DNA of 64,000 nucleotides, taken from the NCBI GenBank assembly GCA_965213625.1, contig CBDBZU010000004.1:1664001-1728000 (forward strand), written 5' to 3'. The notes below the pieces were generated by a model. That model did no database searches and was not told the origin of the DNA. It worked only from the letters and a program-made list of their open reading frames with translations. The position numbers were made by a program, and so were the translations under genes. This stretch comes from a bacterium. GTDB lineage: Bacteria > UBA8248. Positions 17,433 to 64,000 of the stretch are shown piece after piece. Within the stretch, counting starts at the first letter, position 1. Each line of letters begins with the position of its first letter.

Positions 17433-17474
17433 CGCCAAAAGCCATGACTTTCAGGGGCAAACGGCGTATTCTCG
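17433..17474 (+). promoter_or_regulatory. 42-bp direct repeat, copy 2; probable promoter of the VOC gene
   Basis: ATGACT-17 nt-TATTCT about 55 nt upstream of the VOC start. Confidence 0.6.
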
Positions 17475-17528
17475 AACCGAATTCTGCGCTGCTATCGTTT
17501 ATCGGGTCATTCTCTCGGGAGGCTTTTG

Positions 17529-18032: not shown

Positions 18033-18634
18033 TCGACGGCGTGAGCCTGCTCGCCCTGGCGGTGGTTCTCGGCGTGGTCGTCTACTGCGTTTTCTTCCGC
18101 GACGTCTGGCTGACCCGCCGGATGAAGCCGCTGATCGAAATTCTGGATGCGGGGAGCCGCCTCGAAAGAGGTCGCCTGAGCGGTGGATATTCGGGCAAGC
18201 GCGCCTGGTTCGAGTATCGCGCGCAAAGCGGCGGGAACCCCGCCATAATGCGGGTCGGGATCGCCTGCACGGCTTCCCATTCGTTCAGAATTCACAAGAA
18301 AGAAGAGAGCCTGCAGCCTGCCGAGCGCGCTTGTCTCGAGAATGAAATCGCCAGTCCGAATCATCAGACCTTCTACTCGGGCGATCCGCTTTGGGATTCG
18401 GAACTCACTCTGGCGGCGGACTCAGAAGCCTCGTTCAGGCGCTGGATCAACCGGCCCGACGTGCACGAAACTGTTGGCTCGATTGTTTTGCGGCCTCTCA
18501 GCACCATCATTCTCTGCGAGCGGGGCGCGTTGTGCGCCGTCTATCTGGGACCGGGTGCTGAGGCCGTCTTCCAGAGCCGCTTCGCGAGGGACGCGCTGGA
18601 TGAACTCGTATCGCTCAGCGAAACCCTGGTTTGA
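18026..18634 (+). CDS. Hypothetical protein with N-terminal membrane anchor
   Basis: Hydrophobic N-terminus. Overlaps the VOC stop. Confidence 0.6.
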   Translation: MLIDGVSLLALAVVLGVVVYCVFFRDVWLTRRMKPLIEILDAGSRLERGRLSGGYSGKRAWFEYRAQSGGNPAIMRVGIACTASHSFRIHKKEESLQPAERACLENEIASPNHQTFYSGDPLWDSELTLAADSEASFRRWINRPDVHETVGSIVLRPLSTIILCERGALCAVYLGPGAEAVFQSRFARDALDELVSLSETLV

Positions 18635-45136: not shown

Positions 45137-45357
45137 GGCAGAACACGACTTGCACTTGGACGGAGTGGTATTCCGTGATGGGCGGAAGAAACTTGCTTTC
45201 TGTTACTTACGCGGTATATTTGTTGGTGGTTGGGGCTTTCTGACATCGATATCATATAACGGTTGATTAATTTTTCCGGAACCATGCTCCGTTACGGAGC
45301 GGTGTCGGCGTAGCCGACGTTTCTACCTTAAGTATGCTGCCTATGTGAGGTTTTTTC

Positions 45358-47277: not shown

Positions 47278-47548
47278 GTCTTTTCCTTCAATAGCATGAA
47301 GCTTTGCCCGATTTTCTGAGGTGCAGGGCGCATTTGCGGGGCCATGATAACCTGCAAATGAAAATTTTTTTCTTGAATTGAGAGGACCCGGGTGGAGAAA
47401 AGAAAATTCCCTTCGTTTTTCTCTGGAACTGAATATCTGGTAAAAGATTGATTTTGCAATTGCTAAACATTTTTTTCCGGCGCGAGGACCGATGCAGGGT
47501 ACGAATCATGTGGGGACGAATTTTTTGGATATCCACTTGGAATGTTTG

Positions 47549-47580
47549 TTGACAAAGACCATCATCTTCTCTATTCTTTT
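47549..47580 (+). promoter_or_regulatory. Sigma70 promoter P1 overlapping a candidate attL core
   Basis: TTGACA-N17-TATTCT. Core TCTATTCTTTT at 47570-47580. No convincing gene directly downstream. Confidence 0.7.
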
Positions 47581-48604
47581 ATCGAACAGACCGTATCTAA
47601 CATTTCCCGGTAAACCAAATATCCCTGCAATACACTGATTTTATATTATATACGGCGAATTATCGTCCTGTTTCAGCGTTTCTGGTTCTTCTCCCTTGAA
47701 ATGAGTAATCAAACCGCAAGCGGGTTCATTACAACCCCTGCGCGTCCCGGCGAGCGCGTGTCGGGGGAAGTGTCCGGCGGCGGGGTGACGGCGTTCGTTG
47801 CAGCGCTCTGGGAATTGCTTCCGGTTAGTCCGGAGCAACCGCTGCCGGACATCCATTGGGGTTTGCCGCATCGTCCGCGTCCCGGGGTGTTCCGGATGCC
47901 TGGAAACCCGGCGTCTTCCAGGCCGGCGCTTCGGCCCGCTCCCCCCGTGCCAAGGTCCCGCTCCCGCAGGAGGGCTCCCGAGCGGAAACGCGCCGACACC
48001 CGCCGGAAATACCCCTGAGAGAGTGTCCCCGCCGGCGCGAAGCAGCGCGTCCACAGCGCTTCGCCCCCCGGCCTTTGGCAGGGACACCCTCCGTGCGGCA
48101 TGGGCCGATATGCCGGTGTTCCGCATCTCTTTTTCATTCCCCGATGAAAGCGCCTGGACCAGAGCGCCGCCCCTCCCGGCAAGCGTGAAATGCCCCATTG
48201 GTCTTTCACGACATTCCCACGAGGAGTCGCCGGGAGGGACGACTTGCCGCTTGAACCCAGGCGGCACAGCACAAGGAGGAAATGCGCGCCTGAAGCGGCT
48301 GGTTCGCGTTTTTCGCGGTACGGTGTTTTCCCTGAATCTGTAGGGGTATCGCGGCAAATATACACCGCCGCCGGGTCTTGCTCAACGGCTCCTGCTCGCG
48401 CAAGGCCCCCTCGTCGTCCACGTCCCTCATCCATCCGCCGATTGACAGGAACCCTCGAGACGGCAGGTCGTGGTGGTCGACGTCATACCGCCGCCCGCCG
48501 GCGAAAGGTGGAGGCAGTGGAGAGTCGCCTGGGACTGAGGGTGCGGGGTGGAGAGAGGCCGCCGCGCCCATCCGCCATCGACCCACGACCCGGGAGGATT
48601 TTCC

Positions 48605-48952
48605 ATGACAAACCGAAAACCATCCGCTGCGGCGCACTTGATCGTTCTCGCTGGCCCCGCTCTCGCGCTGCTCTACACCCTTATCGCCATAAGCGGCGGG
48701 AGGGGCGTCCGCTTCATCTCCGCGGCCTGGCTCCTCGCCGCGCTCTGGACCATCGTCACCGCGCTCTCGGGCGCCCTGTGGCGGGCGTACCGCAGCGACT
48801 GGTCCGCCTTCACCTCCTACACCCTTCCCGAGAGGAACGAAGAACAATTCGACTGGGAGACCCGGACGGGGCGTTACTCCTGGCGGCGTGATTACGAGGA
48901 AGGCGAGATGTACGATGATGATTATCCCTACGGTCACGGCCCCATCGCCTGA
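48605..48952 (+). CDS. Small membrane protein, hypothetical
   Basis: GGGAGG RBS, two TM helices, acidic tail. Confidence 0.65.
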   Translation: MTNRKPSAAAHLIVLAGPALALLYTLIAISGGRGVRFISAAWLLAALWTIVTALSGALWRAYRSDWSAFTSYTLPERNEEQFDWETRTGRYSWRRDYEEGEMYDDDYPYGHGPIA

Positions 48953-49341
48953 GCGTCCGGAGGTTTCACTCTCTGCCGCGTAAGCGGCGGCACGCGCCCC
49001 GTACCCCGGCATACCCCCCTGCTTGTTCGCCGCGGCGTCCGGTCCTCTTCACGGACGCCCATATTATCCGAAATCAATCCGCCCGGAAGGGATTTCGATA
49101 GTGGATTTCCTGCACCTTGCCGCCGTATGCGCTCACGTCCACCACCCCCCGCGCCGGGACTTGATAAAAAAATACGCTAAGACAGGCGGCATCCCTCTTT
49201 TCCTCCACAGGCGCGCCCCGCCCCGCCGAGAGACAGAGCCGGGCCGGGAGGGGGCGGCGGAAGGGGTCCGGGAGGGAGCCTCTCCCTCTCCGGTCAATAC
49301 CGGTCGCCGCCATCATCCACCCATTCCAAGGAGGCCGCGCG

Positions 49342-49644
49342 ATGCGAAAACCAAAACCTGAAGCCGACACCTTCCTCACCCATCTCCTGGGCCCTGGCCT
49401 GGCCGATGAGCGATACGAGGTCAGGCGATACAAATCCGATGCCCGGGGCAGCATCAGGCCCGCGCCCTCTCCTGAGAGCGGTAAGCGCAAAAGAAAACGC
49501 GTGACGGCCTCGCGCCGTGTTGTCAGGGAGATGCGTCCCGCCCGGGACGAGCTCATCATTTGTACGGGGATCAAAATCCCCGGGAGCGGCCTGCAGCTGT
49601 GGGGCGAACACCTCGTGTGGGGGCGGATGATGAGCCGGGGATGA
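49342..49644 (+). CDS. Hypothetical protein (doubtful or degraded)
   Basis: AAGGAGG RBS; no recognised domain. Confidence 0.35.
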   Translation: MRKPKPEADTFLTHLLGPGLADERYEVRRYKSDARGSIRPAPSPESGKRKRKRVTASRRVVREMRPARDELIICTGIKIPGSGLQLWGEHLVWGRMMSRG

Positions 49645-49710
49645 ACCCGCAAGACGTCTGGCCGCCCCACTGCCGTCTACACGACTTCACCGACACATGA
49701 GGAAAATCCT

Positions 49711-50523
49711 GTGCCACACAAGAATCCGAAAATTCGACGCGAGAGAGAACGCGAACGCCACAGGCGGAGGACCGAATCGCGTAGAGCGCGGAGAGCTTGC
49801 CCGAAGTGCGGCGAATACCCTCCTGCACCCGGGCGAACTCTCTGCGAATCCTGCCTCGGTAAATCCCTGACCGCCGAACGCGCCCGATACGCCAAAGCCC
49901 GGGAAGAGGGGTTCCCATATGGCGGGAGAGACCCCGAAAGCCGCCGCCGCATGGCGCGCGAGAGGGCGAGAAAACGCAGGCGCGAGCGTCTCGAGGCCGG
50001 GCTCTGCACGGCTTGCGGCGAACGGGAACCCGCCGGGGGCGCAGCCGTCTGCGAAATCTGCCGGGAAGCGAGACGCGCGGCGGAAAAGAAGCTTTATGAA
50101 AAAAGGAGATCCTCCGGGCGATGCGGTCGTTGCGGAGGCGCCGTTATCGGCAAGGCTTCGACGTGCGCTTCGTGCGCCGAAAGGGAGGTGAAGCGCCGCC
50201 CAAAGAAGAACGCCGCGAGCAGGAAACGCTATCGCGACAGACGCGCCCTCGGGATCTGCGTGGACTGCCAATCATCCGAAACCAACGGAGCATCAAGGTG
50301 CGCTTCCTGCGCCTTGCGCTCCTGGCACTCCTCGGGCGAGCACAGGGGGATGCCGGTCTTTCCGCCGCGCTACACCGTGGTGGAACTCGAAACGGGCGCA
50401 GAACACGGCCCCCTCGACTCCTGGGAGGAGGTAGCCATGTGCCTCGCCTTCAAGAGGCTCTCCCGCGATGAAATCGAGGTGGTCGAGGACGCGCCCTTGA
50501 TTTCCGGGCTCGCCGGGTGGTGA
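49711..50523 (+). CDS. Basic protein with four tandem CxxC-x11-CxxC zinc-finger-like repeats
   Basis: CPKC..CESC, CTAC..CEIC, CGRC..CASC and CVDC..CASC separated by Arg-rich helices. Confidence 0.8.
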   Translation: MPHKNPKIRRERERERHRRRTESRRARRACPKCGEYPPAPGRTLCESCLGKSLTAERARYAKAREEGFPYGGRDPESRRRMARERARKRRRERLEAGLCTACGEREPAGGAAVCEICREARRAAEKKLYEKRRSSGRCGRCGGAVIGKASTCASCAEREVKRRPKKNAASRKRYRDRRALGICVDCQSSETNGASRCASCALRSWHSSGEHRGMPVFPPRYTVVELETGAEHGPLDSWEEVAMCLAFKRLSRDEIEVVEDAPLISGLAGW

Positions 50524-50674
50524 GCGTCGCCTGAGCCGGCACGGCGGGGGTACGTACCGCCGGCGGGCCGACGACCGAGGGGGAGGGTTCGCCGCCTCCC
50601 TGCTCCGCAGCCGTCCCGTCGACCTCAGGGCGTCTGCCGGAAGCGGCCTCGCCGGGGGGGAGTCTCCGGTCCGC

Positions 50675-51049
50675 TCAACGCCCGCGCCATTCCCGAGGCA
50701 AAGCGAGTCCCGGGCGGCGGGGCCTTCGCTCGACCCGCCAGGCCGCCACCCATGCCGGGAGAGAGAGCAGGAGCGACTGATCGCCTGTGGGCAGCGTACC
50801 TGAGAAGCCCGCGACTGCGGCGCCGCCGAGCGCGGCCCACGCCACTAGGGCGGGACCCGGATAGCCCGAGCGGGCGAGACGCTTACAGGCGAGCGCCAGC
50901 GGCATGCCGCACGGAGCAACCGCCACCAACTCCACGAGAGAGGCGGGCGCCATCATTCCGGACACGGACCCCACGCGCAGAACCTCTTCCGCCATAATTC
51001 CTCCCGGCAGCCACGACAGCGCCGGAATCCAGAATTTGAGACTGGCCAT
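50675..51049 (-). CDS. Small membrane protein, hypothetical
   Basis: GAAGGAGGAGG RBS; hydrophobic segments. Confidence 0.55.
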   Translation of the reverse strand: MASLKFWIPALSWLPGGIMAEEVLRVGSVSGMMAPASLVELVAVAPCGMPLALACKRLARSGYPGPALVAWAALGGAAVAGFSGTLPTGDQSLLLSLPAWVAAWRVERRPRRPGLALPREWRGR

Positions 51050-51243
51050 GCCTCCTCCTTCCTCATGTCCGCGCGCCTTCTGACACGAATCCGCGGCAAA
51101 GGCAAGCGCCCTCCGCGAGCGCTCCCCGCCGGGTGAGAACCTCCCCGGGAGAGGTGAAGAGAAGCGGGGAGCCGGGCAAATGCCCGGTAGGGAGAGGGAG
51201 ACGGTCTCCAGTTCCCGCCGCCGGCGACAACCCGAGAGGAGGC

Positions 51244-51384
51244 ATGGCCATGTAGGAGAACGACTACGACGTCGACGTTCCCACCGCGGATGAGTTGCTC
51301 GCAGAACTCGGACTCGACGCGTACACGATCCGCAAGCTGCGCGACGAAGCGCAAGGCGAGGCGGAGGAGTTTTGCAGCGTCTAG
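51244..51384 (+). pseudogene. Small acidic ORF with in-frame TAG at codon 4
   Basis: GAGAGGAGG RBS; MAM*ENDYDVDVPTADELLAELGLDAYTIRKLRDEAQGEAEEFCSV. Confidence 0.5.
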
Positions 51385-51462
51385 GACGAACCGGGGGGGC
51401 GGGTGAGAGGATTCCCGGCTCCTCGACTTTATCATCCACACCACACTTCAAGGAGTATCAAA

Positions 51463-51903
51463 ATGGCATTCGGACTGAACCGTGCGGAACTGATCGGGCG
51501 TCTCGGCGCCGACGTTACCATCAACCATCTCGCGAGCGGGGGACGCGTCGCGAATCTATCCATAGCGACCGATGAGGGCTACGTGGACAGGCAGTCCGGC
51601 GATCGGGTGGAGAAAACAGAGTGGCATAGGATCGTGACATTCCAGCCGGGCCTGGTGGACATGCTCGAGAGGCACGCGAAGAAGGGTCGCCTGGTATATG
51701 TCGCGGGCAAGCTCCAGACCCGCCGCTGGAAGAAGGATGAGGAAGACTCGGATCGGTTCTCGACCGAGATCCTCATCGCGCCCGGCGGGGTCGTCCAATT
51801 CTTGGAAAAAATGAACGGGAACAACAACGGCAACGGCGCGCACCCCGAGACGGCCGACGTGGCGCCCACCGCGGGCGTAGTCGGGCAGGAGATTCCATTC
51901 TGA
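51463..51903 (+). CDS. ssb: Single-stranded DNA-binding protein (mobile-element type)
   Basis: LN...LIGRLG.D, TEWHR, KG..VYV.GKLQTR.W, C-terminal EIPF. Confidence 0.92.
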   Translation: MAFGLNRAELIGRLGADVTINHLASGGRVANLSIATDEGYVDRQSGDRVEKTEWHRIVTFQPGLVDMLERHAKKGRLVYVAGKLQTRRWKKDEEDSDRFSTEILIAPGGVVQFLEKMNGNNNGNGAHPETADVAPTAGVVGQEIPF

Positions 51904-52276
51904 TCACCCCGGGGGGTCGGCGCCACGCGCCGGCTCCCCTTCTTTTTTGCTCCGGATCCCGAGGAGGCCCGGTATGCCCCGAACACCCTCTCCCGCGTCT
52001 TTCCCTCCCTGCCGGCTTCTCTCGTCTACCGGGAACACCCCATAAATCTCCGGTTCCGTGAACGGTAAACCATGTTCCCGGAAGATCGGCTTGCACCTGC
52101 AAGCACTCCATGCTCAAGGCAGTGGCTCAGTCTACCCCCCGCTGCGGAAATTTCGGGCCGAATAACGGCCCGAAATGACCCTTTCCGCAGCATGAGAGAT
52201 TGTTTCCCGATGAGCTTCGCCTTCATCGTGAAACACCAAAAACTCTTGTGTCCCGGTGGCGGTACTAGTGTCTCTC

Positions 52277-52506
52277 TCTTAGCGCCCTCATTTTAGCACG
52301 AACGCCGGGCGAATAAAGGGTGGCCGCAAGCGGCCATCATTTACCGGTGCCCCCCAAAAACGTCGAGCGGCAAAAAACAGGAGCGCCGCTCTATGAACCG
52401 TGTTTTTCGGGAACCCCCCGGAAAATGACAAGCCCTTGATTCGCCCGCCTACGGGCATCGGCAACACCGCCCGATGCCCTTACGTGTTGAAAATGAGGCG
52501 CTAAGA
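52277..52506 (+). promoter_or_regulatory. Long fold-back structure, Frpo/ssi-like single-stranded promoter candidate
   Basis: Nested stems 52277-52300/52483-52506, 52306-52320/52433-52447 and 52337-52347/52418-52428, with side hairpins. Confidence 0.6.
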
Positions 52507-52541
52507 AGCGCATCCGTTAACTCTCTGGAAAGGAGAAAGGC

Positions 52542-52919
52542 ATGGAAACCACCGTGGTGAACCTGAACACATATGTCGATGAACCCGGCAGCGGCCTGCT
52601 GGTGAGGATCGACCGCATGACGAAGTGGGGAAACCCCTTCCGGCTCGGCGCCGACGGCGACAGCGACGCCGTCATCGAGAAATACCGGCGATGGCTGTGG
52701 GAAAAAATCCAGCGCGAGGAGCTCGACCTATACGAACTCGCCGACCTGCAGGGCTGCGAACTCGGCTGCCACTGCCACTGCCATCCCCTCCCGTGCCACG
52801 GCGATGTCCTCGCACGCGCCGCCGAGTGCGCAGCCAGGTATCTCGACGAGATGCCCAAAGAAGTAGGGCGCAACGAGCGTGGCTACGCTCTTCCCGAATT
52901 CAACCATCCCCTCGCTTGA
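52542..52919 (+). CDS. DUF4326 domain protein
   Basis: IDR.TKWGNPF, I.KYR.WL, L.G..LGC.C..P.PCHGDVL. Confidence 0.85.
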   Translation: METTVVNLNTYVDEPGSGLLVRIDRMTKWGNPFRLGADGDSDAVIEKYRRWLWEKIQREELDLYELADLQGCELGCHCHCHPLPCHGDVLARAAECAARYLDEMPKEVGRNERGYALPEFNHPLA

Positions 52920-53008
52920 GGACAACCGAACCACCGGCTGAAAAACCCAATCACTGAAAGGAGTGAATGATGACTGCCTCCGCGACTCACGACCGCAAGG
53001 AGAGCACC

Positions 53009-53929
53009 ATGTACGAGAACGATCACAACGATGCCCAGCATGAATCTTTCACCGCCATGGTCTGCGAGCAGGCCGCACTATTCGGCGCGACACCGGGGCC
53101 GGACGAGTTCGACAACCGCCCCGTGTGGGACGAGGGCGAGGCAACCGCCGCCGTCATCAAGGCCTTCGGCGCACTCGCGGAAGCTGCGCCCGACGGCACG
53201 CAACTCGCGGATGAGCGAAGAAACCTCCTGTGGGGGTTCGTCAACACCCTCGACGCGCAGACACAACGCCTCGAGCGCGCCGCCGACAAACTCATCCCCG
53301 GCATCCGCGAACTGCAGCGCGAGCAGGACGGCTCCGAGATCAGGTCGCGCGAACTCGAACTCATGACCGACCGCGCCCAGAACCTGAACGACAGGCGCGA
53401 TGCGTTCGAGGGGCTCAGGGACACGGCCGCAGAGGCCTACCGCATCGAGACCGGCGAGGTATGGCGGCCGAGGCGAGGATCACACGTCTCACAGACCGGC
53501 AAACTGACCTCCGCCGTGATCGAGGCGCGCGACTTCCAGCGCGCCAGAAAGGACCGCGAGAACACCGCACACTTGCCGCAGGGAACTCTCGTCGCCGTCG
53601 CGGGAGGCAAGGAGGCGAGCGATGCGGGTAAAATCATCGCACACCTCGACCGCCTTAAGGCCAAGTACGCCGATGTCGTCCTCGTCCACGGCGGCGGCCC
53701 CGGTGCGGAGAAGATAGCGGCGGGATGGGCCGAGCGGAACGGCGTCAACCAGGTCGTGTGTAAACCGGATTGGGATGCCCACGGACGGGCCGCTCCCTTC
53801 CGCAGGAACGACGAACTCCTGGCACTCCTGCCCAAGGGCGTGATCGCGTTCCCCGGCAGCGGCATCACCGACAACCTCGTCGACAAGGCAAAAACCCTCG
53901 GCATCCCCGTCCAGAAAATCGTCGCCTGA
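53009..53929 (+). CDS. DUF2493 (YspA/SLOG-like) domain protein of conjugative elements
   Basis: LWGFVN, EQDGSE, W.PR.GS, LVHGG..GAE.IA..WA, AAPFRRND, FPGSGIT.NL. Confidence 0.85.
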   Translation: MYENDHNDAQHESFTAMVCEQAALFGATPGPDEFDNRPVWDEGEATAAVIKAFGALAEAAPDGTQLADERRNLLWGFVNTLDAQTQRLERAADKLIPGIRELQREQDGSEIRSRELELMTDRAQNLNDRRDAFEGLRDTAAEAYRIETGEVWRPRRGSHVSQTGKLTSAVIEARDFQRARKDRENTAHLPQGTLVAVAGGKEASDAGKIIAHLDRLKAKYADVVLVHGGGPGAEKIAAGWAERNGVNQVVCKPDWDAHGRAAPFRRNDELLALLPKGVIAFPGSGITDNLVDKAKTLGIPVQKIVA

Positions 53930-54598
53930 TGCGGGAGCTCAACGGGTCGCGTCGCCCGGCGGCGCGGCCCGTTCTTCTCCTCCTTCATTTGCCGCTGTAC
54001 TTGCCTCCCCGTATTACTCTCCTCCTCTCCTCTCGCTCAGTCGCCGCGGCGGCTCCCGTTCGCCATCTTCTCCGGCGTCGATTCCCCTGTCGCTTGTCCC
54101 ACGGATTCGACCATCTGACGCCCTTCGGCGCTTCGGGTTACACACCGGAACGCAGCAGGCTGCGAAGTTCCGGCATACGACGACCGGGCTACTCTCCCGT
54201 CTCATGTCGGCGACACAGGGCGCCAGGCGCATTGCGGATCGAGCGTATGCTCAGAGCATACACAATCTTTCTCATCCCTGACGGCGCATGGCTGCGCAAG
54301 TCGCGCATGGATACCGGATCCGTCGCAATCGGTGGCGTTCCGTAATACAATGTGTTACGGCCCGCATTACGTTAGTATGCTTCCGATTCTGGCCGTTTCG
54401 CGGTGCGCCGGGGCCGCCACCTGTGCGGAGCGCTCTCTCGCAGATGGCCGCAAGCCCCTGAATACGGGACGTTGAATCGAGCGTAGACGGTCCCGGATAC
54501 GCCCTGATTTTCGCCCCGAACCAAGCCGTCGGAACCCGGAAAGGGCGAGCGATGCGGTCCGTATCGCCACCCGATCTTGTCCTGAGGAAGAGAAAAAG

Positions 54599-54985
54599 AT
54601 GACGCGAAACGACCCGAATCAGCCCGAAAAGAGCAAAAAATCAGCGGAAAAACCGGGCGAACCGAGAGCGCCGCACTCGGTTCGCTTCACCGGTTCGGAA
54701 TGGAAATTGATTAAACGAGCCGCCGAACTGCACGGTATTGCGGCCGGTGAACTCGTCCGCAACGGCGCGATGGCCGCTGTCGAGGAGCTGCTCGACGAGC
54801 CTCCAGAGGCCACCCTGTCGCATGGTCATGCCGCCCTCATCGAGTCCGTCTACCGCATGGTCTACGTGATGGCGACCCTGGATCGGGGACGATTGATCGA
54901 CGCCGGGCGCGGGAAAGAGCTCGAGGACCTCATCGCCGCGGCGCACAGAACGATGGCCGAGACCATGGACGAAGGCACAGGGTGA
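54599..54985 (+). CDS. Hypothetical ribbon-helix-helix-like DNA-binding protein
   Basis: HSVRFT..EW..I..AA..HG....ELVR pattern. Confidence 0.6.
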   Translation: MTRNDPNQPEKSKKSAEKPGEPRAPHSVRFTGSEWKLIKRAAELHGIAAGELVRNGAMAAVEELLDEPPEATLSHGHAALIESVYRMVYVMATLDRGRLIDAGRGKELEDLIAAAHRTMAETMDEGTG

Positions 54986-55330
54986 ATGCAGAGGGCGGCG
55001 CGATGCGTGCGTAAGCCGGTTTATCGGTTGCAAATTTGTTGCAAGAACCCGCGAATCGGGCCCGGTCGGACCGCGTTCAGAGCCCCAGGTCCATCTCGAT
55101 CCGCTTCCCGGGGCCGGGTTCGGGTGTCTTCGCGTGCGGCGTTTCCCGTCCGTTTTTCATGCCCGGGGAAGAGGAATCGGAGAGTCCATTCGGGTAAAGT
55201 CCAGATTGCACGGCAACCTTTCGGCCAAAGACACTTGAACACGGAACATTCCGAAGCCCGCTTCAAGAATGTCTCCAACTTGTGTTGCCGGCTTCTGTGT
55301 ATTATATTTATATATAACTTGGAGGATTTC

Positions 55331-55588
55331 ATGCACACGACAAATCTGCGCAAAGTCGGTGGTTCCATCATGCTAGCCGTTCCACCTGCCCTTCTTGACC
55401 TCCTGAAACTCGGGGTCGGCGCGAAGGTGGAAATAGACGTGGAGGACGGTCGCCTGATCGTCGAGCCCAAAGCACGTCCCGTCTATTCACTCGATGAGCT
55501 TCTCGCGCAATGCGTAGAGACCTCTACGCAGCCCGCCGAGGACCGCGCCTGGATTGAGGCCAGACCAGTTGGCAAAGAGTTGTTGTAG
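55331..55588 (+). CDS. pemI: AbrB/MazE-family antitoxin (PemI-like)
   Basis: MHTTNLRKVGGSIMLAVPP...YSLDELLAQC...W.....GKELL. AT-rich palindromic operator upstream. Confidence 0.85.
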   Translation: MHTTNLRKVGGSIMLAVPPALLDLLKLGVGAKVEIDVEDGRLIVEPKARPVYSLDELLAQCVETSTQPAEDRAWIEARPVGKELL

Positions 55589-55920
55589 TGAAGCGGGGTG
55601 AAATCTGGCTCGTCAGCCTCGACCCCACCGCAGGCCATGAACAACAGGGTACCCGTCCGGTACTGATCGTATCCCCAGACCCGTTCAATAGACTCACCGG
55701 GACGCCCGTGGTCTTGCCGATCACATCGGGCGGCGACTTTGCGCGCAGGGCAGGTTTCGCAGTTTCTCTCTCGGGCGCGGGTACCCGAACAACCGGTGTC
55801 GTCCGTTGCGACCAGCCGAGGTCCCTTGATCTCGCTGCCCGCAACTGGGCGCGTCTCGAAACCGTTCCTGAACTTATTATGGACGAAGTGCTTGCCCGAA
55901 TCGCCACCATCCTCGAATAA
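55588..55920 (+). CDS. pemK: PemK/MazF-family endoribonuclease toxin
   Basis: RGEIWLVSLDPTAGHEQQGTRPVLIVS...FN, PIT, DQ.R.LD. Confidence 0.9.
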   Translation: MKRGEIWLVSLDPTAGHEQQGTRPVLIVSPDPFNRLTGTPVVLPITSGGDFARRAGFAVSLSGAGTRTTGVVRCDQPRSLDLAARNWARLETVPELIMDEVLARIATILE

Positions 55921-56231
55921 AAAGTGATTGTTCGTCTTCAAGGCCGGACGGCACTTATCAGTGATTTCCCGTTTCGGGTCCCAGTTCTTGCGAATAACGC
56001 TAATTTGCCAATGCAATAGAGGGAGCGGCACCGATTGGCTTAATCGGTCCTGGTTCAGGGAGAGGTGAGGAGCGAAATTTCGTGCCTTGGAGCGTCAGGT
56101 GGGAAGATCGGTAAACGTAATGAATGTGATCGTACGTCAGCTTCATTTTTTTCTCCTGTTGGGTATGGATGAAAAAATTGGGGAATTGTAACCCAAAGTT
56201 GACAAGATTTTTAGGATAAATATCTACCCCG

Positions 56232-56729
56232 CTATTGGACTATTTCTACAGAGCGCCTGGCCTTTTTGTACTCGACATTCAAACGATGTACCGTCTTAAT
56301 CAACTCGGAAGACTTGCCGAAAACTACGAACATCAACTTATTTTTCCAATGGATTGCAGTTGAAAAACTTCCATGAGGAAGCCTTTTTTGATCCGTTCGA
56401 TGCACCACCATGATAAGAGCTTCAAATTCTTCGGCGGGTAGATTCTGGATTTCATCAATCAAGATGATGATCGAAGATTTGCGCGCCTTCGCTGCCTCGC
56501 CCGCGGCGACAAACACCTCGGCAAAATCACGGGCTAGCGTGCCGCTGTCGGCAACTCCTGGTTCACCATCTATGTCTAAGAAAAATTCAATATCCTCAAC
56601 CTTGATCTTGACCGCACCAACAAAACTCTTTAGAACGCGCAAACTCCTTTTTACATGTTCACTAACCCCCTTGATTCGATCAAGCTTCAGCAAGATCGAG
56701 CGCAAAGTGGCAATAATCGTTTTCGACAA
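56232..56729 (-). pseudogene. Fragment of an AAA-type ATP-binding protein
   Basis: Walker B-like IILIDEIQ and G.ADSG.L, but no Walker A and truncated ends. Low GC. Confidence 0.6.
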
Positions 56730-57218
56730 AATTCGTTCGTGCTGATTTCGATAAAGTCTGTGAGTGCGTATTCTTTAGATTTTGTTTGGAGGTGTAGCTA
56801 TTGAACTCAAGAGGAATTGAGAAGGGCTATAAGTCTTAGTGAATCAGAATCAATGCCTACTTGGTTGCCGGTTTCAGATACAGCATAACGTGCTCACCGC
56901 TCAATACAAGATATTGATTTCACTTCGTCATGTGTATAATCACGGATAAAATCGCGGAGTCTACTGGTGATGGGGTTCAATACGAGCGTCGGCGCCTTCG
57001 TATACTTGATCGAATACCATCACCTGAAAGCCGGAGTTTCTATTGATTTATTGGTCAGGCTCGGAAGTGAAGCGGTGAAATTGAAGTTCCTGGTGCACAC
57101 AGCTATCGATGCTCGAGGACGTTAAATGTATGACCCGAGTCGTCCAATACGGCGTGTTAATTCGCAAGTCGTCTGGTGGTACTAGAGAAACACGAGCAAC
57201 TGACGAGGAGGTGACTTC

Positions 57219-57518
57219 ATGAACCCCAAAATAACCATACCGAAACCCGCGCTTTCCGCCTTCTGTCGGGAGAACGGTATCCGCCGGCTTTCCGTCTTCG
57301 GCTCGGCCTTGGGTGAGGATTTTGGACCCGGGAGCGATATAGACCTTCTCGTCGAATTCGAGCCGGAAGCTAGAATCGGCTTCATGAAACTGGCCAGGAT
57401 GCAAAGGGAGTTGGCGGCCATCATTCACCGCAAGGTGGATCTGGTTCCCCAAGATGGATTGAAGCCGAAAATACGAACGGAGGCGCTTTCGGGCGCGGAA
57501 GTGATCTATGCGGCGTGA
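57219..57518 (+). CDS. MNT-family nucleotidyltransferase antitoxin
   Basis: LSVFGS......SDIDLLVEF, KVDLV. Confidence 0.9.
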   Translation: MNPKITIPKPALSAFCRENGIRRLSVFGSALGEDFGPGSDIDLLVEFEPEARIGFMKLARMQRELAAIIHRKVDLVPQDGLKPKIRTEALSGAEVIYAA

Positions 57519-57864
57519 GGAACTCTACCTCGCCGACATGCTGGAGGCTGCGGACGCCATCGGCCGATTCCTTCTGGAAACCGAGCAACATTCGTTCATC
57601 GCGGACGACCTGCTGCGTAGCGCCGTCCTGCATAAATTGGCGGTCATCGGCGAAGGAGCAACCCGGTTGTCCGATGCGTTTCAGGCGCGCCATCCCCAAA
57701 TCGAATGGGGAGACATCGTGGCGTTTCGCAACATCATCGTTCACGCCTACTTTTCTGTGGATTGGCCTATCGTCTGGGTGACGGCGACACAGGACGTTCC
57801 GGAACTTCGGCGCGGAATCGCCCGGATACTTGCGGAAGAATACCCCGACTGGGAAGCACGGTAA
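57508..57864 (+). CDS. HEPN (DUF86) toxin
   Basis: IGE, I.W.....RN...HAY..VD...VW with the Rx4H motif RNIIVH. Confidence 0.9.
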   Translation: MRREELYLADMLEAADAIGRFLLETEQHSFIADDLLRSAVLHKLAVIGEGATRLSDAFQARHPQIEWGDIVAFRNIIVHAYFSVDWPIVWVTATQDVPELRRGIARILAEEYPDWEAR

Positions 57865-58196
57865 CCTTCCTCGAGCCGCGCAGAAACAATAAACGGCATG
57901 GAACCAGATGGGCGCGAAGGGGAGAACAATCTAGTCAGGCGGATATGTCGTCCCGCCCCTGAACTCTCAAACGCCCTTGTCCGCAGGTGTGGTGACTCCG
58001 ATTTCTCCGCGCAGGAGGCGCCTGAAGGTGGCCCGTCGCCACCCGTTCCTGCACCGGGCGATCCTGCGTCCGACGCGGTTCCGCCTGCCGGCGGGCATCG
58101 AAGCCGAGCGCCCGTCGATCCAAGAGGTATATTCCGCTTGGCGCTGCTCGATGAGCGAAACCCGGCCGTCCCGTTGATGCGGCGTTTCGAGGAGAA

Positions 58197-59010
58197 TTGA
58201 CACGCGAACAGCGCGCTGCCACAGATTCCCTGTTCGCGCACGAGACCGGCGTAAGTGCCGCCGCGTCCGGGTTCGGCAAGACGGTCGTCGCAGCATTGAT
58301 GATAGCTGAGCGCGGCGTGAAGACGCTCATCCTCGTTCATCGCCGCCAGCTGATGATGCAGTGGATTGCGCGGCTTGGTGTTTTTCTCGATCTTACTACT
58401 TCCGCCATCGGACGGGCCGGGGGCAGGAAACGCAAGCTTAGCGGGGTCATAGACGTCGCCACGCTCCAGAGTCTGGAGCGCAAAAACGTGGTGGACGACC
58501 TCGTCGCCGACTACAGGCACCTCGTGGTCGACGAGTGCCACCACTTATCTGCGGTGAGCTTCGAGGTGGTGGCGCGCCGCGCCAGGGCGAGGTACGTGCT
58601 CGGGTTGTCTGCGACCATCATGCGCAAGGAGCACGCCGGGGAACTCGCCGGGAAGATCGGGCGCTTCGCGCGAAACGTCCTGCTCTTCAGAGGCGGCATG
58701 GAAGAGAGAGCGCCGCGAGATCATGCAGCGCCTGGAAGACATACCCGACGGCGAGGAGCGGGTACTGGTCGTGACCGGCCGCTATATCGGAGAGAGATTC
58801 GACGATGTCCGCCTCGACATGCTGTTCCTCGCGATGCCCGTGTCGTGGCGGGGAACGCTGGCCCAGCACTTCGGCCGCCTGCACCGGCTCCATTCAAAAA
58901 AACGCGAAGGTGCTAGTCTACGAATATATCGACGACGCGGTGCCGGCGCTCAGGCGTTATGGGCGGCAGTCGCGTCAAGGGCTACGAGAGCCTCGGCTAC
59001 ACAGTCGAGT
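58197..59010 (+). pseudogene. Degraded DEAD/DEAH-box (SF2, restriction-type) helicase
   Basis: SGFGKT, VDECHH and GLSAT, then an internal deletion and frameshifts. Helicase C motifs (GRYIGE.FD, GRLHR) lie in another frame. Confidence 0.75.
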
Positions 59011-59449
59011 GGCCCGGCGTCCCAAGCGGAACGTGAACTTACAGGCCCGGGCGAGTATGGCGCTGACGTTATTACGGTCGCGTGATCCGGACAAGGTGAA
59101 GATATAGGCCTGCCTGACGGCGGCAGGCGATCTCAAACGGTTCAGTGCCGCTCATTTTTCTAGGTTATGTACCCCTTGGAGGGCTCTTGCATCAACTGGA
59201 ATCGCCGTACGAATATCCATGAAGCTTACAAACCCCACGGTCTCGATCTACCTGAACCCAAGTAATACAAACCGTTCCGAACCCAATTCCTCACCTTATT
59301 TCATAAAGCAGGTGGTTTATGTACGTGGGGCAGTCCTTGGGAGGAGCTGCCACCTGCGAATCAATCATTCTCTTTGGGCCTACTCCCCCACCCCTGCATA
59401 AATATATCCTTGTCCTGAGGCGAGGAATGCTTCAAAGAACTCCACACAC

Positions 59450-59478
59450 AAAAAACCGGGGGGCCGAAGCCCCCCGGT
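59450..59478 (-). terminator. Rho-independent terminator of the porin gene
   Basis: Minus strand ACCGGGGGGC-TTCG-GCCCCCCGGT followed by a T-run. Confidence 0.85.
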
Positions 59479-59519
59479 CGTCATCGCGTCAGGTAAGGAC
59501 TCGAGCGTCCTTCATGCTG

Positions 59520-60746
59520 CTAGAATGAATGCCTCAACCGCCAGCTGACCACCCACCCGTCATCGGGCTCAGTCGCGTTGGCCGCTCTGCCGTAGTCGCC
59601 GCGCAGGATGACGGCGCCAACAGCGCGAAGCTCGGTACGCGGATGTATTTTCCACTTGAAGCCGGCGTTGAGCTCGGTGCCGAATTCCTTGGAAGTATCC
59701 ATATTATCTCCGGGATGACTTTCTGCGGAGTTGTAAACGGATACGCCACCACCCAGCGAAAATGTTTTGCTGATCTTGTACTCGCCTATTCCCTCGAGCA
59801 CAACCGCGCCGTTCAAATTTTTCAAAGTAACGTCTTTCAGATCGTTATTGATACTATCCCAGCGGCGCGAACTCATGATGTGAGAACCGTGGAGCCAACC
59901 GGAACCATTGTTTTGAGGGAAATGGAATTTACCCGTTTCGCCGTCTTTGCCTTCGTCATCGCCGGAGAGCATCGTGAGGTTGCCCTCGAGTTTCAGCTTG
60001 CCCAGGCTTGCGGAAGTCCTCACCAAGACGGCCCATCCCGAAAGATCCGTCCCTCCATCGAGCTCACCATCCTGGCCGACGACCGAGGCGTTCAAGTTGA
60101 AGATGCCTACCTTGCCCTTGGCGTGGAGACCGAAGAAGCTGTAGTCATAACCGTTATTCGCTCCGTTTCTGGAATTGGCCAGCCAAGGAGAGAGCGTGAG
60201 AGTGGGCGACACTTTGACGCCCACGCTGGCATAGTAATCCTCTTTATCGGCGTTGGCTTCGCTCTTGTCTTCACTAGCCTTGACATAAAACATGCTGAGC
60301 GACATGTTCTTGCTGAGCTTGCCATAGACCCCGACGCCCGGCTCGCGAGTCCGTCCGCCGCTGTCGTAGATTTCCTTATCTGGCGAGAAGCGATCCCAAC
60401 GGCCCCAACGCATGCGGAGCGTGCTGCCCGGGATCGCGAAGTCGATCGCCCAGCGGTTCACACCTAGGGTCTGACGACTGGCATTGGTGAAACCGCCGTG
60501 CGGGCTTTGAAATTCGGGCTCCCACACGGTTGTGACTGCGCCGCTCTTCACCGTGAATCGCGGGCGGATGAGCGCTTCGAGGTAATTATCCTTGTCGTCT
60601 GCGTCATCGTCCCCGTCTTTGTTGGCGTTATTGCTGGTGCCGCGCACCTGATAGAGACCGGTCATCTTGAAGTCGGCCGCATACGAGGGCAAGGTGAATG
60701 ACAAGACGAGCGCCATCGCAAATAGAGCTAACAGAATTTTCCTCAT
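59520..60746 (-). CDS. Outer-membrane beta-barrel porin-like protein
   Basis: Signal peptide MRKILL...SYA|ADF, amphipathic beta-strands, C-terminal WRLRHSF, GAGGAG RBS. Confidence 0.8.
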   Translation of the reverse strand: MRKILLALFAMALVLSFTLPSYAADFKMTGLYQVRGTSNNANKDGDDDADDKDNYLEALIRPRFTVKSGAVTTVWEPEFQSPHGGFTNASRQTLGVNRWAIDFAIPGSTLRMRWGRWDRFSPDKEIYDSGGRTREPGVGVYGKLSKNMSLSMFYVKASEDKSEANADKEDYYASVGVKVSPTLTLSPWLANSRNGANNGYDYSFFGLHAKGKVGIFNLNASVVGQDGELDGGTDLSGWAVLVRTSASLGKLKLEGNLTMLSGDDEGKDGETGKFHFPQNNGSGWLHGSHIMSSRRWDSINNDLKDVTLKNLNGAVVLEGIGEYKISKTFSLGGGVSVYNSAESHPGDNMDTSKEFGTELNAGFKWKIHPRTELRAVGAVILRGDYGRAANATEPDDGWVVSWRLRHSF

Positions 60747-60829
60747 GTGTATTTCTCCTCATCGAGGTTTCAAAAAAATGTTGCCGCCTTCCTTCGTTTT
60801 AATGTCCTGATTGTTCGATGCTTCTGAAT

Positions 60830-61001
60830 CTGTGCTTCGTCGCCTGAAACAGGGCTTCCCGCTCTCACATCACCCCCTCTCTTCAATACTGCCCCGTACG
60901 TCGACAAGGTTCTATCGAGCGATCTGATAATTGCCGCTTATGTAGACACTATCCCATTAGTAAAAATAGTCATTCCATTCTTCATTTCTCAAAAGAATAG
61001 A
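60830..61001 (-). repeat. Inverted repeat left arm (porin 5' leader plus -10 core)
   Basis: Exact reverse complement of 63829-64000 (172/172). Confidence 0.95.
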
Positions 61002-61278
61002 AAAGATATGATTTAAAAGCTAAAACGCCGACAATCATGCGCATGGATGCGCTCATGCATGATAAATACATGTTTTTAATTTATTTATAATTACACTTTC
61101 TTCCGCGTTGCCTCTTGCGCCATCGCCAGATTTGTGCTGGAATGCGCTCTCAGTTGATGCGGGACGTATGCGTTATGATGACGTATTTTGACGGGAGCGC
61201 CGCACCGGAGCATGCGGATGGGCGTTCCCGCAGACCGCCGCAGGCATGCGGTTTGATGACACACCGGAGGGAGGAACC

Positions 61279-62463
61279 ATGCCGAGGAGAAGCGAATTCA
61301 GGCTCACCAAGCGCGCCGTCGACGCGCTCGAAACCGAACGCCGCGACGCCCTGTTCTGGGACCGGGATCTGGCCGGATTCGGGGTGCGCGTCCACGCCAC
61401 GGGACGGAAGGTTTTTGTCGCGCAATCGAGAGGCCCCAGGGGGATAAAACGCGTGACCCTGGGCCGTGACGGGGAGATGTCGTGCGAGGAGGCGAGGAGG
61501 CAGGCCGCCATCGTCATCGACCGCATTAAAAGCGGCGAGGACCCCGTCCCGAAGCCGCCTGAGGCGGAACCCACCCTGGGGGAGATCGCCGAACGCTTCA
61601 TGAGCACATACGTGGAGAGGCGCCTCAAGCCGGGCAGCGTCGTGGAGTACCGCACCATGCTGGACAAATACATCCTGCCAGCCCTGGGCGGGATGGCGCT
61701 GTCCGAGGTCAGGCGGGCGCAAATCTCCGCGTTTCATCACGGCATGCGCGGCATGCCGAGCCGGGCGAACACGTCGCTCCACGTCCTCTCCCGGATGCTC
61801 AGCCTGGCCGAGGCGTGGGACCTCATCCCGCCCGGACGGAACCCGTGCAGGGGAGTGCCGCTCTACAAGACGCGCTCGCGCGAGCGGTTCCTGACGACGG
61901 AGGAATACCGCCGCCTGGGCCGGACGTTAAAAGAAGCCGAGGCGGACGGCTCGATCTGGTCGCCCGCGATCAAGGCGATCCGGCTGCTCATGCTGACCGG
62001 ATGCCGGAGGAACGAGATACTGAACCTTAAGTGGGACGATGTGGACCGCACGGCGGGCGTTCTGAGGCTCAGGGACGCCAAGGCGGGCCCCCGCATGGTT
62101 CCCCTGACGAATCCCGTGCTGAGGGTTCTCGAGACGCTCCCCCGGAAGCGGGGCGAGCCATGGGTGATCCCCGGGCAGAACCCGGGCCAGAACCTGCGGA
62201 GCCTTCACTACTACTGGCGGCGCATACGGGAGCGGGCGGGTCTCTCCGACGTGCGGATCCATGACCTGCGCCATTCGTTCGCTTCGCGTGCGCTTGCGCT
62301 GGGCGAGAGCCTCTACACGATCGGCAAGCTTCTGGGACACGCGACGGTGCCGACGACGGCGCGCTACACGCACCTGATGCTCCGGGCCGAGAAGGATGCG
62401 GCCTCCCGTGTGGGGGGAAGCATCGGCGTTCACCTGACGAACGAGAAGGAGGAACTTGAATGA
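61279..62463 (+). CDS. Tyrosine recombinase/integrase 1 (arm-binding domain)
   Basis: WD..L.GFG.RV arm domain; TGCR..E, DAKAG, HDLRH.FAS, LLGH, TARY all intact. Confidence 0.93.
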   Translation: MPRRSEFRLTKRAVDALETERRDALFWDRDLAGFGVRVHATGRKVFVAQSRGPRGIKRVTLGRDGEMSCEEARRQAAIVIDRIKSGEDPVPKPPEAEPTLGEIAERFMSTYVERRLKPGSVVEYRTMLDKYILPALGGMALSEVRRAQISAFHHGMRGMPSRANTSLHVLSRMLSLAEAWDLIPPGRNPCRGVPLYKTRSRERFLTTEEYRRLGRTLKEAEADGSIWSPAIKAIRLLMLTGCRRNEILNLKWDDVDRTAGVLRLRDAKAGPRMVPLTNPVLRVLETLPRKRGEPWVIPGQNPGQNLRSLHYYWRRIRERAGLSDVRIHDLRHSFASRALALGESLYTIGKLLGHATVPTTARYTHLMLRAEKDAASRVGGSIGVHLTNEKEELE

Positions 62464-63629
62464 AGAAGCCGGGCACGATGGTGCTGTCGAGCCGGATGGT
62501 GGAGAAGTTTGCCGTGGAAAAAGACACGGTGTACTGGGATAGTTACGTCACCGGCTTCGGCGTCAGGGTGTATCCGAGCGGGAGCAAGGTCTACATCGCC
62601 CAGGCGCGGGGGCCCGGGGGGCCGAAGCGCGTGACGATAGGCCGCCACGGGGTGATCAACGCGGATGAGGCGAGAAGGCGCGCGGCGCTCGTCATCAATC
62701 GCATCAAGTCGGGCGAGGAGGGGGTTCCAAAACAGACGAAGCCCGTGCCCGGTCCCACGGTGGCCGAAGCCGCCGCGCGGTATCTCGCCGAATACGTGGA
62801 GGTGCGCTGTAAGCCGCACACCGCCGCCATGACCCGGTCGCTACTCGGAAGACGCATCTTGCCCGCCCTGGGCGGGACGCCGCTCGCGGTGGTGGAGCGC
62901 GCGCAGGTGGCGGAACTGCACCAGAGCATGCACGAGACGCCCCCGACGGCGAACAGGACAGTCGGCATCCTCTCCGCGCTATACCGGTATGCCGAGAGGT
63001 GGGGCCTCATTCCCGAGGGAGCGCCGAACCCCTGCCGCGCCGTCGTCAAATTCCCCAAGCGACAGGGGGAGCGTTTTTTGACGGATGAAGAGTTCATCCG
63101 CCTGGGACGCACACTCGATGAGGTGGAGAAAAGCAAGCCGAAGTACGCGAACGCGGTGGCGGCGATCAGACTTCTGGCCCTGACGGGGTGCCGGAAGTCG
63201 GAAATCCTCACCCTGCGCTGGGAGAACGTGGCGCTGGAAGAGGGGGAATTGAGACTGCCCGATTCCAAGACGGGCGCCCGCGTGATATCGCTCCCGCCGC
63301 AGGCGGTCGCTCTCCTGGCCGCCCTGCCCCGGGAGGAAGGGAATCCCTGGGTGATTCGCGGCAGGAAGCCGGGCGTTCGCCTGATGAATATCTATGGCGT
63401 TTGGCACTACGTCCGAGCGCGGGCGGGTCTCGATGACGTGCGCCTCCACGACCTCCGCCACTCGTTCGCGTCCAGAGCGCTCGCGCTGGGCGAGAGCCTT
63501 CCGATGATCGGCAGGCTCCTGGGGCACAGCCGCATTGAGACCACGGCGCGCTACGCGCACCTAGCGCGCGATACCGCGTACGAAGCGGCCGAGCGGGTTG
63601 CGGCGAGCATCGAGAAAGACATACTATGA
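62460..63629 (+). CDS. Tyrosine recombinase/integrase 2 (paralog of 1)
   Basis: WD....GFG.RV; TGCRKSE, DSKTG, HDLRH.FAS, LLGH, TARY. ATGA-coupled to recombinase 1. Confidence 0.93.
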   Translation: MKKPGTMVLSSRMVEKFAVEKDTVYWDSYVTGFGVRVYPSGSKVYIAQARGPGGPKRVTIGRHGVINADEARRRAALVINRIKSGEEGVPKQTKPVPGPTVAEAAARYLAEYVEVRCKPHTAAMTRSLLGRRILPALGGTPLAVVERAQVAELHQSMHETPPTANRTVGILSALYRYAERWGLIPEGAPNPCRAVVKFPKRQGERFLTDEEFIRLGRTLDEVEKSKPKYANAVAAIRLLALTGCRKSEILTLRWENVALEEGELRLPDSKTGARVISLPPQAVALLAALPREEGNPWVIRGRKPGVRLMNIYGVWHYVRARAGLDDVRLHDLRHSFASRALALGESLPMIGRLLGHSRIETTARYAHLARDTAYEAAERVAASIEKDIL

Positions 63630-63806
63630 GAGGCAATCGACGGGGTGGACGAAAAGAACCGGACTGGCCGGGTTCGTGTGCTCGTTTTTTTGAAATTTTC
63701 AGATTCGGGGTTTGACGAATCAGTCTATCTTCGCTAATACTATGTCTATGTGGAATAGGGTGACTGATTCCGAAAGATTTCTTTTCGGATTCAGGTGGGA
63801 AGTTTG

Positions 63807-63839
63807 TTGACAAAATATAAATTTTCGATCTATTCTTTT
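63807..63839 (+). promoter_or_regulatory. Sigma70 promoter P2 overlapping a candidate attR core
   Basis: TTGACA-N18-TATTCT. Upstream GGAA.GTTTGTTGACAAA is shared with P1. Confidence 0.7.
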
Positions 63840-64000
63840 GAGAAATGAAGAATGGAATGACTATTTTTACTAATGGGATAGTGTCTACATAAGCGGCAAT
63901 TATCAGATCGCTCGATAGAACCTTGTCGACGTACGGGGCAGTATTGAAGAGAGGGGGTGATGTGAGAGCGGGAAGCCCTGTTTCAGGCGACGAAGCACAG
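63829..64000 (+). repeat. Inverted repeat right arm (second copy of the porin leader; runs off the window)
   Basis: Exact reverse complement of 60830-61001. Confidence 0.95.

Follow-up and report, generated by a model that had tools for sequence, protein, structure and literature searches.

Near the right end of the 64,000-nucleotide (nt) stretch of DNA analyzed here (G000:C4:1664001-1728000; hereafter the window, in G000, the genome under study), an integrative element separates the promoter of an outer membrane porin gene from the gene that it once served. The element carries a second porin cassette, together with a promoter, P2, on a block that can probably be inverted by the integrases of the element itself, and the cell surface is probably switchable between two versions of the porin. 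According to the model we favor, the -10 box (TCTATTCTTT) was the exact insertion point of the element within the promoter of a hypervariable outer membrane beta-barrel gene, and the element brought its own porin cassette (69% amino acid identity) and its own TTGACA promoter. The 2.8-kb block lying between inverted cores, which consists of an upstream flank, the integrase genes int1 and int2, and P2, would then act as an invertible promoter. In G000, P2 is directed toward the chromosomal porin and the element porin adjoins the flank, which has no promoter; when flipped, as in the relative G020, the block directs P2 toward the element porin and leaves the chromosomal porin promoterless. One good promoter would therefore serve one of two alternative porins. 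Int1 and Int2 are the predicted catalysts both of the flip, at a core of 10 to 11 nt, and of integration. The flip would recur within populations, expression would follow the promoter, and the outcome may be variation of a surface channel that is a phage receptor or a host-recognition target.

Insertion at a porin promoter

The locus is organized around an 11-nt core, TCTATTCTTTT, found at positions 47570 to 47580 (plus strand), 60991 to 61001 (minus strand), and 63829 to 63839 (plus strand), exactly where an initial annotation of this DNA had placed it. Three copies in the window compare with an expectation of 0.01, a count reached in 0 of 100 shuffles of the window. The whole 4.15-Mb genome contains four copies (expectation, about 0.45), of which three are at this locus, and the surroundings of the fourth are unrelated to it. 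Site 1 (47570 to 47580) is the left junction of the element, attL-like in that promoter P1, core, and element end follow one another, and homology to empty sites in relatives stops there. P1 itself (47549 to 47577, plus strand; TTGACA-17-TATTCT) scored 10/12 in a promoter scan and is homologous to the promoters of relatives with empty sites; it is the native porin promoter, now parted from its leader. Site 3 (63829 to 63839) stands behind the element-borne P2 (63807 to 63836, plus strand; TTGACA-18-TATTCT), which also scored 10/12 and was the top promoter match in the 6.5 kb scanned. Upstream of the two promoters, TTTGTTGACAAA is identical, and the regions are 72% alike over 39 nt.

Sites 2 and 3 share what follows the core. 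From core to leader their sequences are identical, forming an inverted repeat of 172 nt within the window and of 282 nt, at 100% identity, when sequence past position 64000 is included; the repeat extends 27 nt into both porin reading frames. Arm A (60720 to 61001, minus strand) comprises the site 2 core (60991 to 61001), a 244-nt leader, and 27 nt at the start of the internal porin frame, and arm B (63829 to 64110, of which 63829 to 64000 is in the window; plus strand) comprises the site 3 core and leader and runs past the window end. On its other side, the site 2 core abuts a promoterless, AT-rich flank upstream of int1 (61002 to 61245, plus strand), making this the silent junction. The flank is 95% identical in G020, and int1-upstream motifs related to it occur in paralogous elements. 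Homology ends at the core at all three sites. Each part of this arrangement had been anticipated: the related TTGACA promoters before sites 1 and 3, the identical leader after sites 2 and 3, and homologies that stop at the core.

Between the direct copies of TCTATTCTTTT at 47570 and 63829 lies an insert of 16.3 kb (47581 to 63828), with int1 and int2 at its right end. Its conserved chromosomal left flank is an FG-GAP/LpoB-like gene (45358 to 47277, plus strand; Pfam FG-GAP_3, 2.3e-19), which in relatives with empty sites is directly upstream of the porin promoter. We compared window positions 45501 to 65500 (20 kb; L005) with 40 relatives and then mapped features; the relatives were represented by one genome per species and are not independent of one another. 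In G002, G022, G017, G018, and G008, the FG-GAP gene, a TTGACA promoter, TCTATTCTTT, the leader, and the porin follow one another uninterrupted, with TTTATTCTTT in place of TCTATTCTTT in G022. The same empty-site order is found in G003, and an FG-GAP gene followed by a porin is the usual layout in the genus. The gene order predicted for element-free relatives (FG-GAP gene, P1-type promoter, leader, and porin) is thus present in at least five congeneric genomes. Precise empty sites, cargo of a mobile type, and related copies elsewhere support the earlier proposal that 47581 to 63828 is a mobile element integrated between direct cores, and site 1 would be the attL-type junction left by that integration.

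The porin within the element (59520 to 60746, minus strand) has 408 amino acids, and the paralog that the initial annotation expected past position 64000 is present at window-equivalent positions 64084 to 65313 (L004:84-1313, plus strand), with 409 amino acids and 69% identity to the internal copy. These are the sole two copies in the G000 genome. Both have a signal peptide, an N terminus of the form MRKILL...SYAAD, and phenylalanine as the last residue. A terminator hairpin with the same stem stands behind the internal porin (59454 to 59479, L005 13954-13979, minus strand) and the external porin (L005 19854-19879, plus strand), and the duplicated unit was therefore the whole cassette of leader, coding sequence, and terminator. 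Neither protein matched a Pfam family, and the NCBIfam model DESULF_POR1 for homotrimeric porins gave 50.5 and 48.9 bits against a cutoff of 250, over the N-terminal half only. An AlphaFold model of the internal porin, computed with 22 homologues, predicts a large beta-barrel of about 18 strands (predicted local distance difference test, 75; predicted template modeling score, 0.73). Its best matches in the PDB, according to Foldseek, were AlgE, the Campylobacter jejuni MOMP, and Occ/OprD porins (template modeling scores, 0.63 to 0.68; E down to 2.7e-16). Because the modeled barrel matches these proteins, "porin" is a fair name for both genes.

Porins of this locus are 41 to 91% identical between species; the neighboring gene dn1 is 87 to 95% identical. 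Tandem arrays of porin paralogs occur in G019 (G019:C1:2848518-2851936 and 2441330-2444637), one of them directly 3' of the FG-GAP gene, and represent a different route to multiplying the same porin gene. The 244-nt leader (60747 to 60990 and 63840 to 64083) is unusually long and is well conserved between species, in blocks such as GAGAGGGGGTGATG and CGGCAACATTTTT. A structured RNA was considered for the leader and rejected: Rfam gave no match at E values up to 1, and RNAalifold on 17 leaders found compensatory change at 0 of 52 pairs.

Inversion of the promoter block among relatives

The closest relative, G020, has integrases 95 to 96% identical and flanks 87 to 93% identical to those of G000, and it shares the P1-core-element junction and the first 6 kb of cargo. 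Its chromosomal porin (86% amino acid identity to the ortholog) is followed by dn1 and dn2 (92 to 96%), the two genes downstream of the external porin that are syntenic in relatives. The two genomes are collinear on both sides of the promoter block (window positions 44001 to 53956 and 63829 to 69667), and the 2.8-kb segment of flank, int1, int2, and P2 is reversed, with its breakpoints at the cores. In G020 it is the promoterless flank that abuts the core, leader, and chromosomal porin, and P2 that abuts the core, leader, and internal porin. A misassembly in G020 is unlikely, because its two arms share just a 10-nt perfect run. The flip between sites 2 and 3, put forward from the G000 sequence by itself, is therefore real on an evolutionary scale and corresponds to the G020 arrangement.

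The same module, in which a porin, leader, and core are followed by flank, int1, int2, and promoter and then by a second core, leader, and porin, is present in eight species (G000, G020, G011, G012, G016, G013, G014, and G021), as well as on a partial contig of G005 and on the metagenome contig L050. At every module junction examined in the eight genomes (17/17), promoter or flank switches to leader at TCTATTCTTT. In each of the eight, a single junction is of the promoter type and one or more are of the flank type (two in G013); G000 has the leaderless P1 in addition. The porin genes that lack a promoter retain full-length, uninterrupted reading frames in all eight. In G020, G011, G012, G016, and G021, the two leaders have a perfect run of only 10 to 12 nt in common and are 77 to 84% alike overall, and such short shared runs in five of the eight genomes favor site-specific over homologous exchange. 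A homogenized tract that begins exactly at the core is found in G000 (282 nt), G014 (74 nt), and G013 (57 nt), a pattern that fits conversion seeded at the crossover site. Unlike in shufflons of the Rci type, where multiple inversions join alternative 3' coding segments to one constant 5' gene part, the exchange point lies upstream of the full leader and reading frame, and complete genes, not gene segments, are therefore swapped onto the promoter.

As initially described, the segment between sites 2 and 3 encodes two tyrosine recombinases, both intact: the reading frames are full, and the catalytic motifs are kept. The first gene, int1 (61246 to 62463, plus strand), encodes a tyrosine integrase whose N-terminal domain is of the arm-binding type (Pfam Phage_integrase, 7.6e-24; Arm-DNA-bind_3, 2e-11), and int2 (62460 to 63629, plus strand), which overlaps it by 4 nt, encodes a second tyrosine integrase 51% identical to the first. 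A terminator-like hairpin with a weak consensus match follows int2 (63669 to 63684, L005 18169-18184, plus strand). Each protein consists of Arm-DNA-bind_3, a SAM-like N-terminal domain, and a catalytic domain. The named catalytic motifs of tyrosine recombinases are Arg, His-x-x-Arg, His, and Tyr; these are invariant in the eight porin-linked copies of Int1 and present in Int2. The NCBIfam model NF007371 for tyrosine-type DNA invertases did not recognize the pair, at 15.2 and 12.5 bits (E, 0.012 and 0.08) against a cutoff of 222. A maximum-likelihood tree built from 33 Int1 sequences places all eight porin-linked copies in one clade (100/100), nested among the copies of other elements; L050 was recognized as porin linked only after this tree had been built. 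When metagenomes were scanned with Int1, a single locus of 52, L050, proved closely related (76%), and its order of FG-GAP gene, inverted porin, core, flank, int1, and int2 is not a new orientation.

Several module genomes show further rearrangement. In the cargo-less modules (G011, G012, G016, and G013) and in G014, native intergenic region adjoins int2, and in G016 and G013 it includes 50 to 66 nt of the FG-GAP 3' end. A second porin-leader-core-flank copy, lacking integrases, lies beside the FG-GAP gene in G013 (L043, G013:C2:1065000-1080000), 1.6 Mb from the full module (L028, G013:C2:2692000-2704000), and the sequences just outside these two copies are neighbors in G000 (about C4:721520 and 722354). 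Judged from sequence comparison, this arrangement suggests a megabase-scale rearrangement between duplicated parts of the module. In G014 (L041/L042, G014:C1:3788000-3817000), the inverted cores are about 22 kb apart and the leaders are 99% identical; between the cores lie int1 and int2 and 11 kb of cargo, along with the native promoter and the FG-GAP gene in full, and the flank upstream of int1 is split by a 3.6-kb insertion with an open reading frame of about 800 amino acids. The G020 element has a second full-length FG-GAP paralog (L024 11716-13629, 79% amino acid identity) that is convergent with the internal porin. Among cargo-less modules, those of G011, G012, G013, and L050 likewise pair an FG-GAP gene with an inverted porin.

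Weighing the inversion against other explanations

Four sequencing runs (two samples, one study), compared over 20 kb, cover the locus in the form of 31-mer unitigs, and unitig assemblies drop rare variants; a fifth run was left out, with a 0.05 share of words. The unitigs end 30 nt inside each repeat arm, as any repeat would give. Because perfect repeats of 282 nt leave the set of 31-mers unchanged when the block between them inverts, this format is blind to the flip, and the two block orientations are known only between species, from G000 versus G020. In run X5, from a different sample, the sole unitig over the junction of the site 2 core and the flank has an extra C at the junction (L005:15501, window position 61001). 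The small assembly contigs C1 to C3, considered as alternative forms of the locus, proved unrelated to it.

A number of observations weigh against an integrase-driven switch. No joint between any two cores was found in the four unitig runs, a format that does not register a flip of 282-nt repeats. The promoter faces the dn1-side porin in seven of the eight genomes and is reversed in G020 only, and with one species of eight flipped, the flip may be infrequent or have happened just once. Within both copies of the leader, just past the core, stands a weaker match to a promoter, TTGAGA-18-TATTTT (9/12), and the "off" porin may therefore not be wholly silent and may have basal expression. This match qualifies the initial claim that site 2 has no good -35; the claim stood in that the promoter scan listed no -35 hexamer with at least 4/6 matches at a spacing of 16 to 18 nt, and counting by eye gave at most 3/6. 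A search around the three sites for repeats of the arm or core type that recombinases might bind returned only A/T-rich low-complexity words. The clade that unites all porin-linked copies of Int1 has a counterpart for Int2, in a quick tree, with a support of only 50, within which the copies form two strongly supported subclades. No simple core-to-core series derives the cargo-less modules (G011, G012, G016, and G013) or that of G014 from a scheme with three sites. The perfect 282-nt repeat of G000 also permits RecA-dependent inversion, and integrases are therefore not required for the flip in this genome.

The initial annotation proposed a broader switch than the one we favor, in which sites 1, 2, and 3 all recombine routinely, yielding excision, a 13.4-kb inversion that places the internal porin behind P1, and the 2.8-kb flip. 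The insertion, the empty sites, and the flip between sites 2 and 3 all bear on this proposal favorably, but the product of sites 1 and 2 does not: P1, core, leader, and internal porin are joined in none of the genomes examined, and the 13.4-kb inversion accordingly finds no representative. The core at site 1 of G000 is intact (11/11), and the empty sites show that the pair formed by sites 1 and 3 came from integration. As a direct repeat, that pair could excise the element and rejoin P1 to the leader. G013 also has three junctions, two of the flank type and one of the promoter type. Against routine use of site 1, the corresponding core in G020 has gained 1 nt, site 1 in G000 is spanned without a break by a 6.5-kb unitig, and no joint at the cores indicative of excision, a circle, or a restored attB was found in the four unitig runs, where rare variants drop out. 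The unitig data argue weakly against abundant recombination at site 1, and we consider it doubtful that all three sites are in regular use.

Another possibility, which we judge unlikely, is that the locus is a fixed scar: a single integration in the ancestor of G000 and G020, followed by one accidental inversion between the leader repeats, would have left an arrangement that is now static, with the internal porin a silent, decaying passenger. The lack of alternative junctions in the unitigs, the single flipped species, and the mutated site 1 of G020 are what a scar would leave, as is cargo that looks partly degraded (a helicase fragment and weak coding signal over 47.6 to 51 kb). However, the porins that lack a promoter show no decay in any of the eight genomes, and neither integrase is disrupted, their catalytic motifs being invariant. 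The architecture of one promoter per module has been kept in eight species, though the cassettes have diverged to 44 to 91%. Homogenization of the leader from the core arose independently in three genomes, implying repeated exchange, and the missing junctions come from data in which the flip cannot be seen.

Finally, it is very improbable that the inversion is real and recurrent but driven by RecA between the leader repeats, as in Campylobacter fetus sap, with the integrases acting in integration and excision only, since the perfect inverted repeat of G000 and the 98 to 99% alike leaders of G014 and G013 would suit RecA, but the arms in G020, G011, G012, G016, and G021 make poor substrates for it, and the exchange of promoter and flank falls in one shared 10-nt stretch throughout the genomes, where homologous crossovers would scatter and leave chimeric leaders.

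The element family and known switching systems

The rest of the insert resembles the cargo of other mobile elements in this lineage. Pfam and PHROGs searches placed SSB (51403 to 51903), DUF4326 (52542 to 52919), SLOG/YspA (52967 to 53929), RHH/NikA-like (54599 to 54985), MazE-like (54986 to 55588), MntA (57219 to 57518), and HepT (57508 to 57864) genes and a helicase fragment (58197 to 58916) in it, coordinates being given without strand. The MntA (nucleotidyltransferase) and HepT toxin-antitoxin genes overlap and sit in the AT-richest part of the element (57219 to 57864; guanine-plus-cytosine [GC] content, 0.44 to 0.49), and composition is uneven across the insert, with GC content reaching 0.64 to 0.69 and falling to 0.44. 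The stretch with SSB, DUF4326, and SLOG (about 51100 to 54160) has many further copies in G000 and its congeners at 81 to 86% identity, and G000 contains eight tandem integrase pairs (in three, one of the two genes is truncated) and one solo copy. The insert is a member of a multicopy, lineage-specific family of integrative elements characterized by tandem arm-type tyrosine integrases and an SSB/DUF4326/SLOG backbone.

At the left end of the element, a motif of about 60 nt (47705 to 47768; open reading frame start MSNQTASGF) recurs in about 13 places in the genome at 70 to 87% identity, and it may mark the far end of other family members. P1 now reads into the region of this motif. Attachment-site repeats of paralogous elements were sought from the left-end motif and the regions upstream of int1, and this approach was abandoned when it gave only 9- to 11-nt matches, no better than chance. 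Two pairs of integrase loci in G000 are near identical (G000:C4:5721-8082 and 190478-192839; 15717-18314 and 4111802-4114399), with identical tblastn statistics and nearly identical flanks; they are either recent duplications of whole elements or duplications in the assembly.

Phase-variable outer membrane proteins are usually viewed as chromosomal contingency loci with dedicated invertases. In Campylobacter fetus sap, one promoter lies on an invertible segment between opposed homologous surface protein genes with conserved 5' regions, and inversion is RecA dependent, with conserved 5' regions of about 600 bp and no dedicated recombinase on the segment. The present locus likewise has a single invertible promoter between oppositely oriented surface protein paralogs. 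Some prophages act as regulatory switches (active lysogeny), where the element interrupts expression of a host gene and excision restores it, and phage PA-2 carries a porin of its own, Lc. The locus described here differs from both in that the interruption is at the promoter, a replacement promoter is supplied, and the choice would be made by inversion without excision. The crossover sites of Dichelobacter nodosus Omp1 are of the Hin/Din type, served by a serine invertase, and lie in the 5' coding region.

The initial view that this is not a described system was too strong, in that inversion of a promoter or expression site among outer membrane protein paralogs is already known. As summarized in the sources that cite the original work, the Omp1 multiple-inversion system of D. 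nodosus (Moses et al. 1995, via PMC4196234) also has linked major outer membrane protein paralogs whose form is selected by a proposed site-specific inversion; it is described as having four genes, several sites, and no integrative element. The SusC/SusD shufflons of Bacteroides fragilis, in which a tyrosine recombinase acts (Nakayama-Imaohji et al. 2009, via PMC9881135), come close to this locus, as there too a single promoter or expression site is moved among outer membrane paralogs by inversion at short shared sites. In that account the invertase is of a chromosomal housekeeping type and the targets are TonB-linked transporters, whereas here the enzymes are tandem arm-type integrases of a multicopy element, carried on the invertible block itself, the crossover is the -10 box, and one of the two genes is delivered by the element.

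Among smaller switches, fimS (FimB/FimE) and ipuS of uropathogenic Escherichia coli, the latter with tandem recombinases IpuA and IpuB that control the UpaE autotransporter (PMC6083910), resemble the locus, according to the description available, in having a promoter on an invertible segment next to tyrosine recombinases; ipuS shares with it the tandem pair and the surface protein target as well. Both are presented there as ON/OFF switches of one operon, with segments of about 300 bp and recombinases that lack an arm-binding domain, whereas the 2.8-kb segment here holds the recombinase genes and would toggle two alternative genes. Islands with several tandem tyrosine recombinase genes include GInts (PMC5385486) and strand-biased circularizing elements (PMC9345347 and PMC10214605), which by description only are similar to this element in having more than one tandem tyrosine recombinase in the mobility module. 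In the summaries of those elements (PMC5385486, PMC9345347, and PMC10214605), a -10 box does not figure as a target, and there is no mention of an invertible promoter inside the element. In the literature searched, which lacked most subscription journals, we found no paper joining an invertible promoter, a tyrosine recombinase, and a porin, nor any description of phase variation for this lineage, which is known only from metagenome-assembled genomes. What is unusual about the locus is its tie to an integrative element and the tandem integrases of that element.

The integrative element supplies the switch hardware at this locus (the enzymes, the promoter, and one of the two alternative genes), and the crossover is the -10 box. 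It offers a clear, conserved example in a lineage represented only by metagenome-assembled genomes, and a compact recombination substrate of a 10-nt core and two enzymes. We tentatively suggest that a single integrase pair may run mobile porin replacement as well as the toggle. In such a system the -10 box would serve as the attachment site, the host porin would be silenced or captured, and a divergent cassette would be delivered, with the same enzymes and 10-nt core flipping the promoter and excising the element to restore the gene; the result would be a horizontally transferable, reversible receptor switch that, within a genus of uncultured symbionts, has become widespread and in part domesticated. 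Should the switch be active, then the integrases of genomic islands can double as phase variation invertases, and entire switches can be transferred horizontally. An element of this kind could then decide which receptor its host displays, with consequences for resistance to phages and for how an animal host recognizes the cell.

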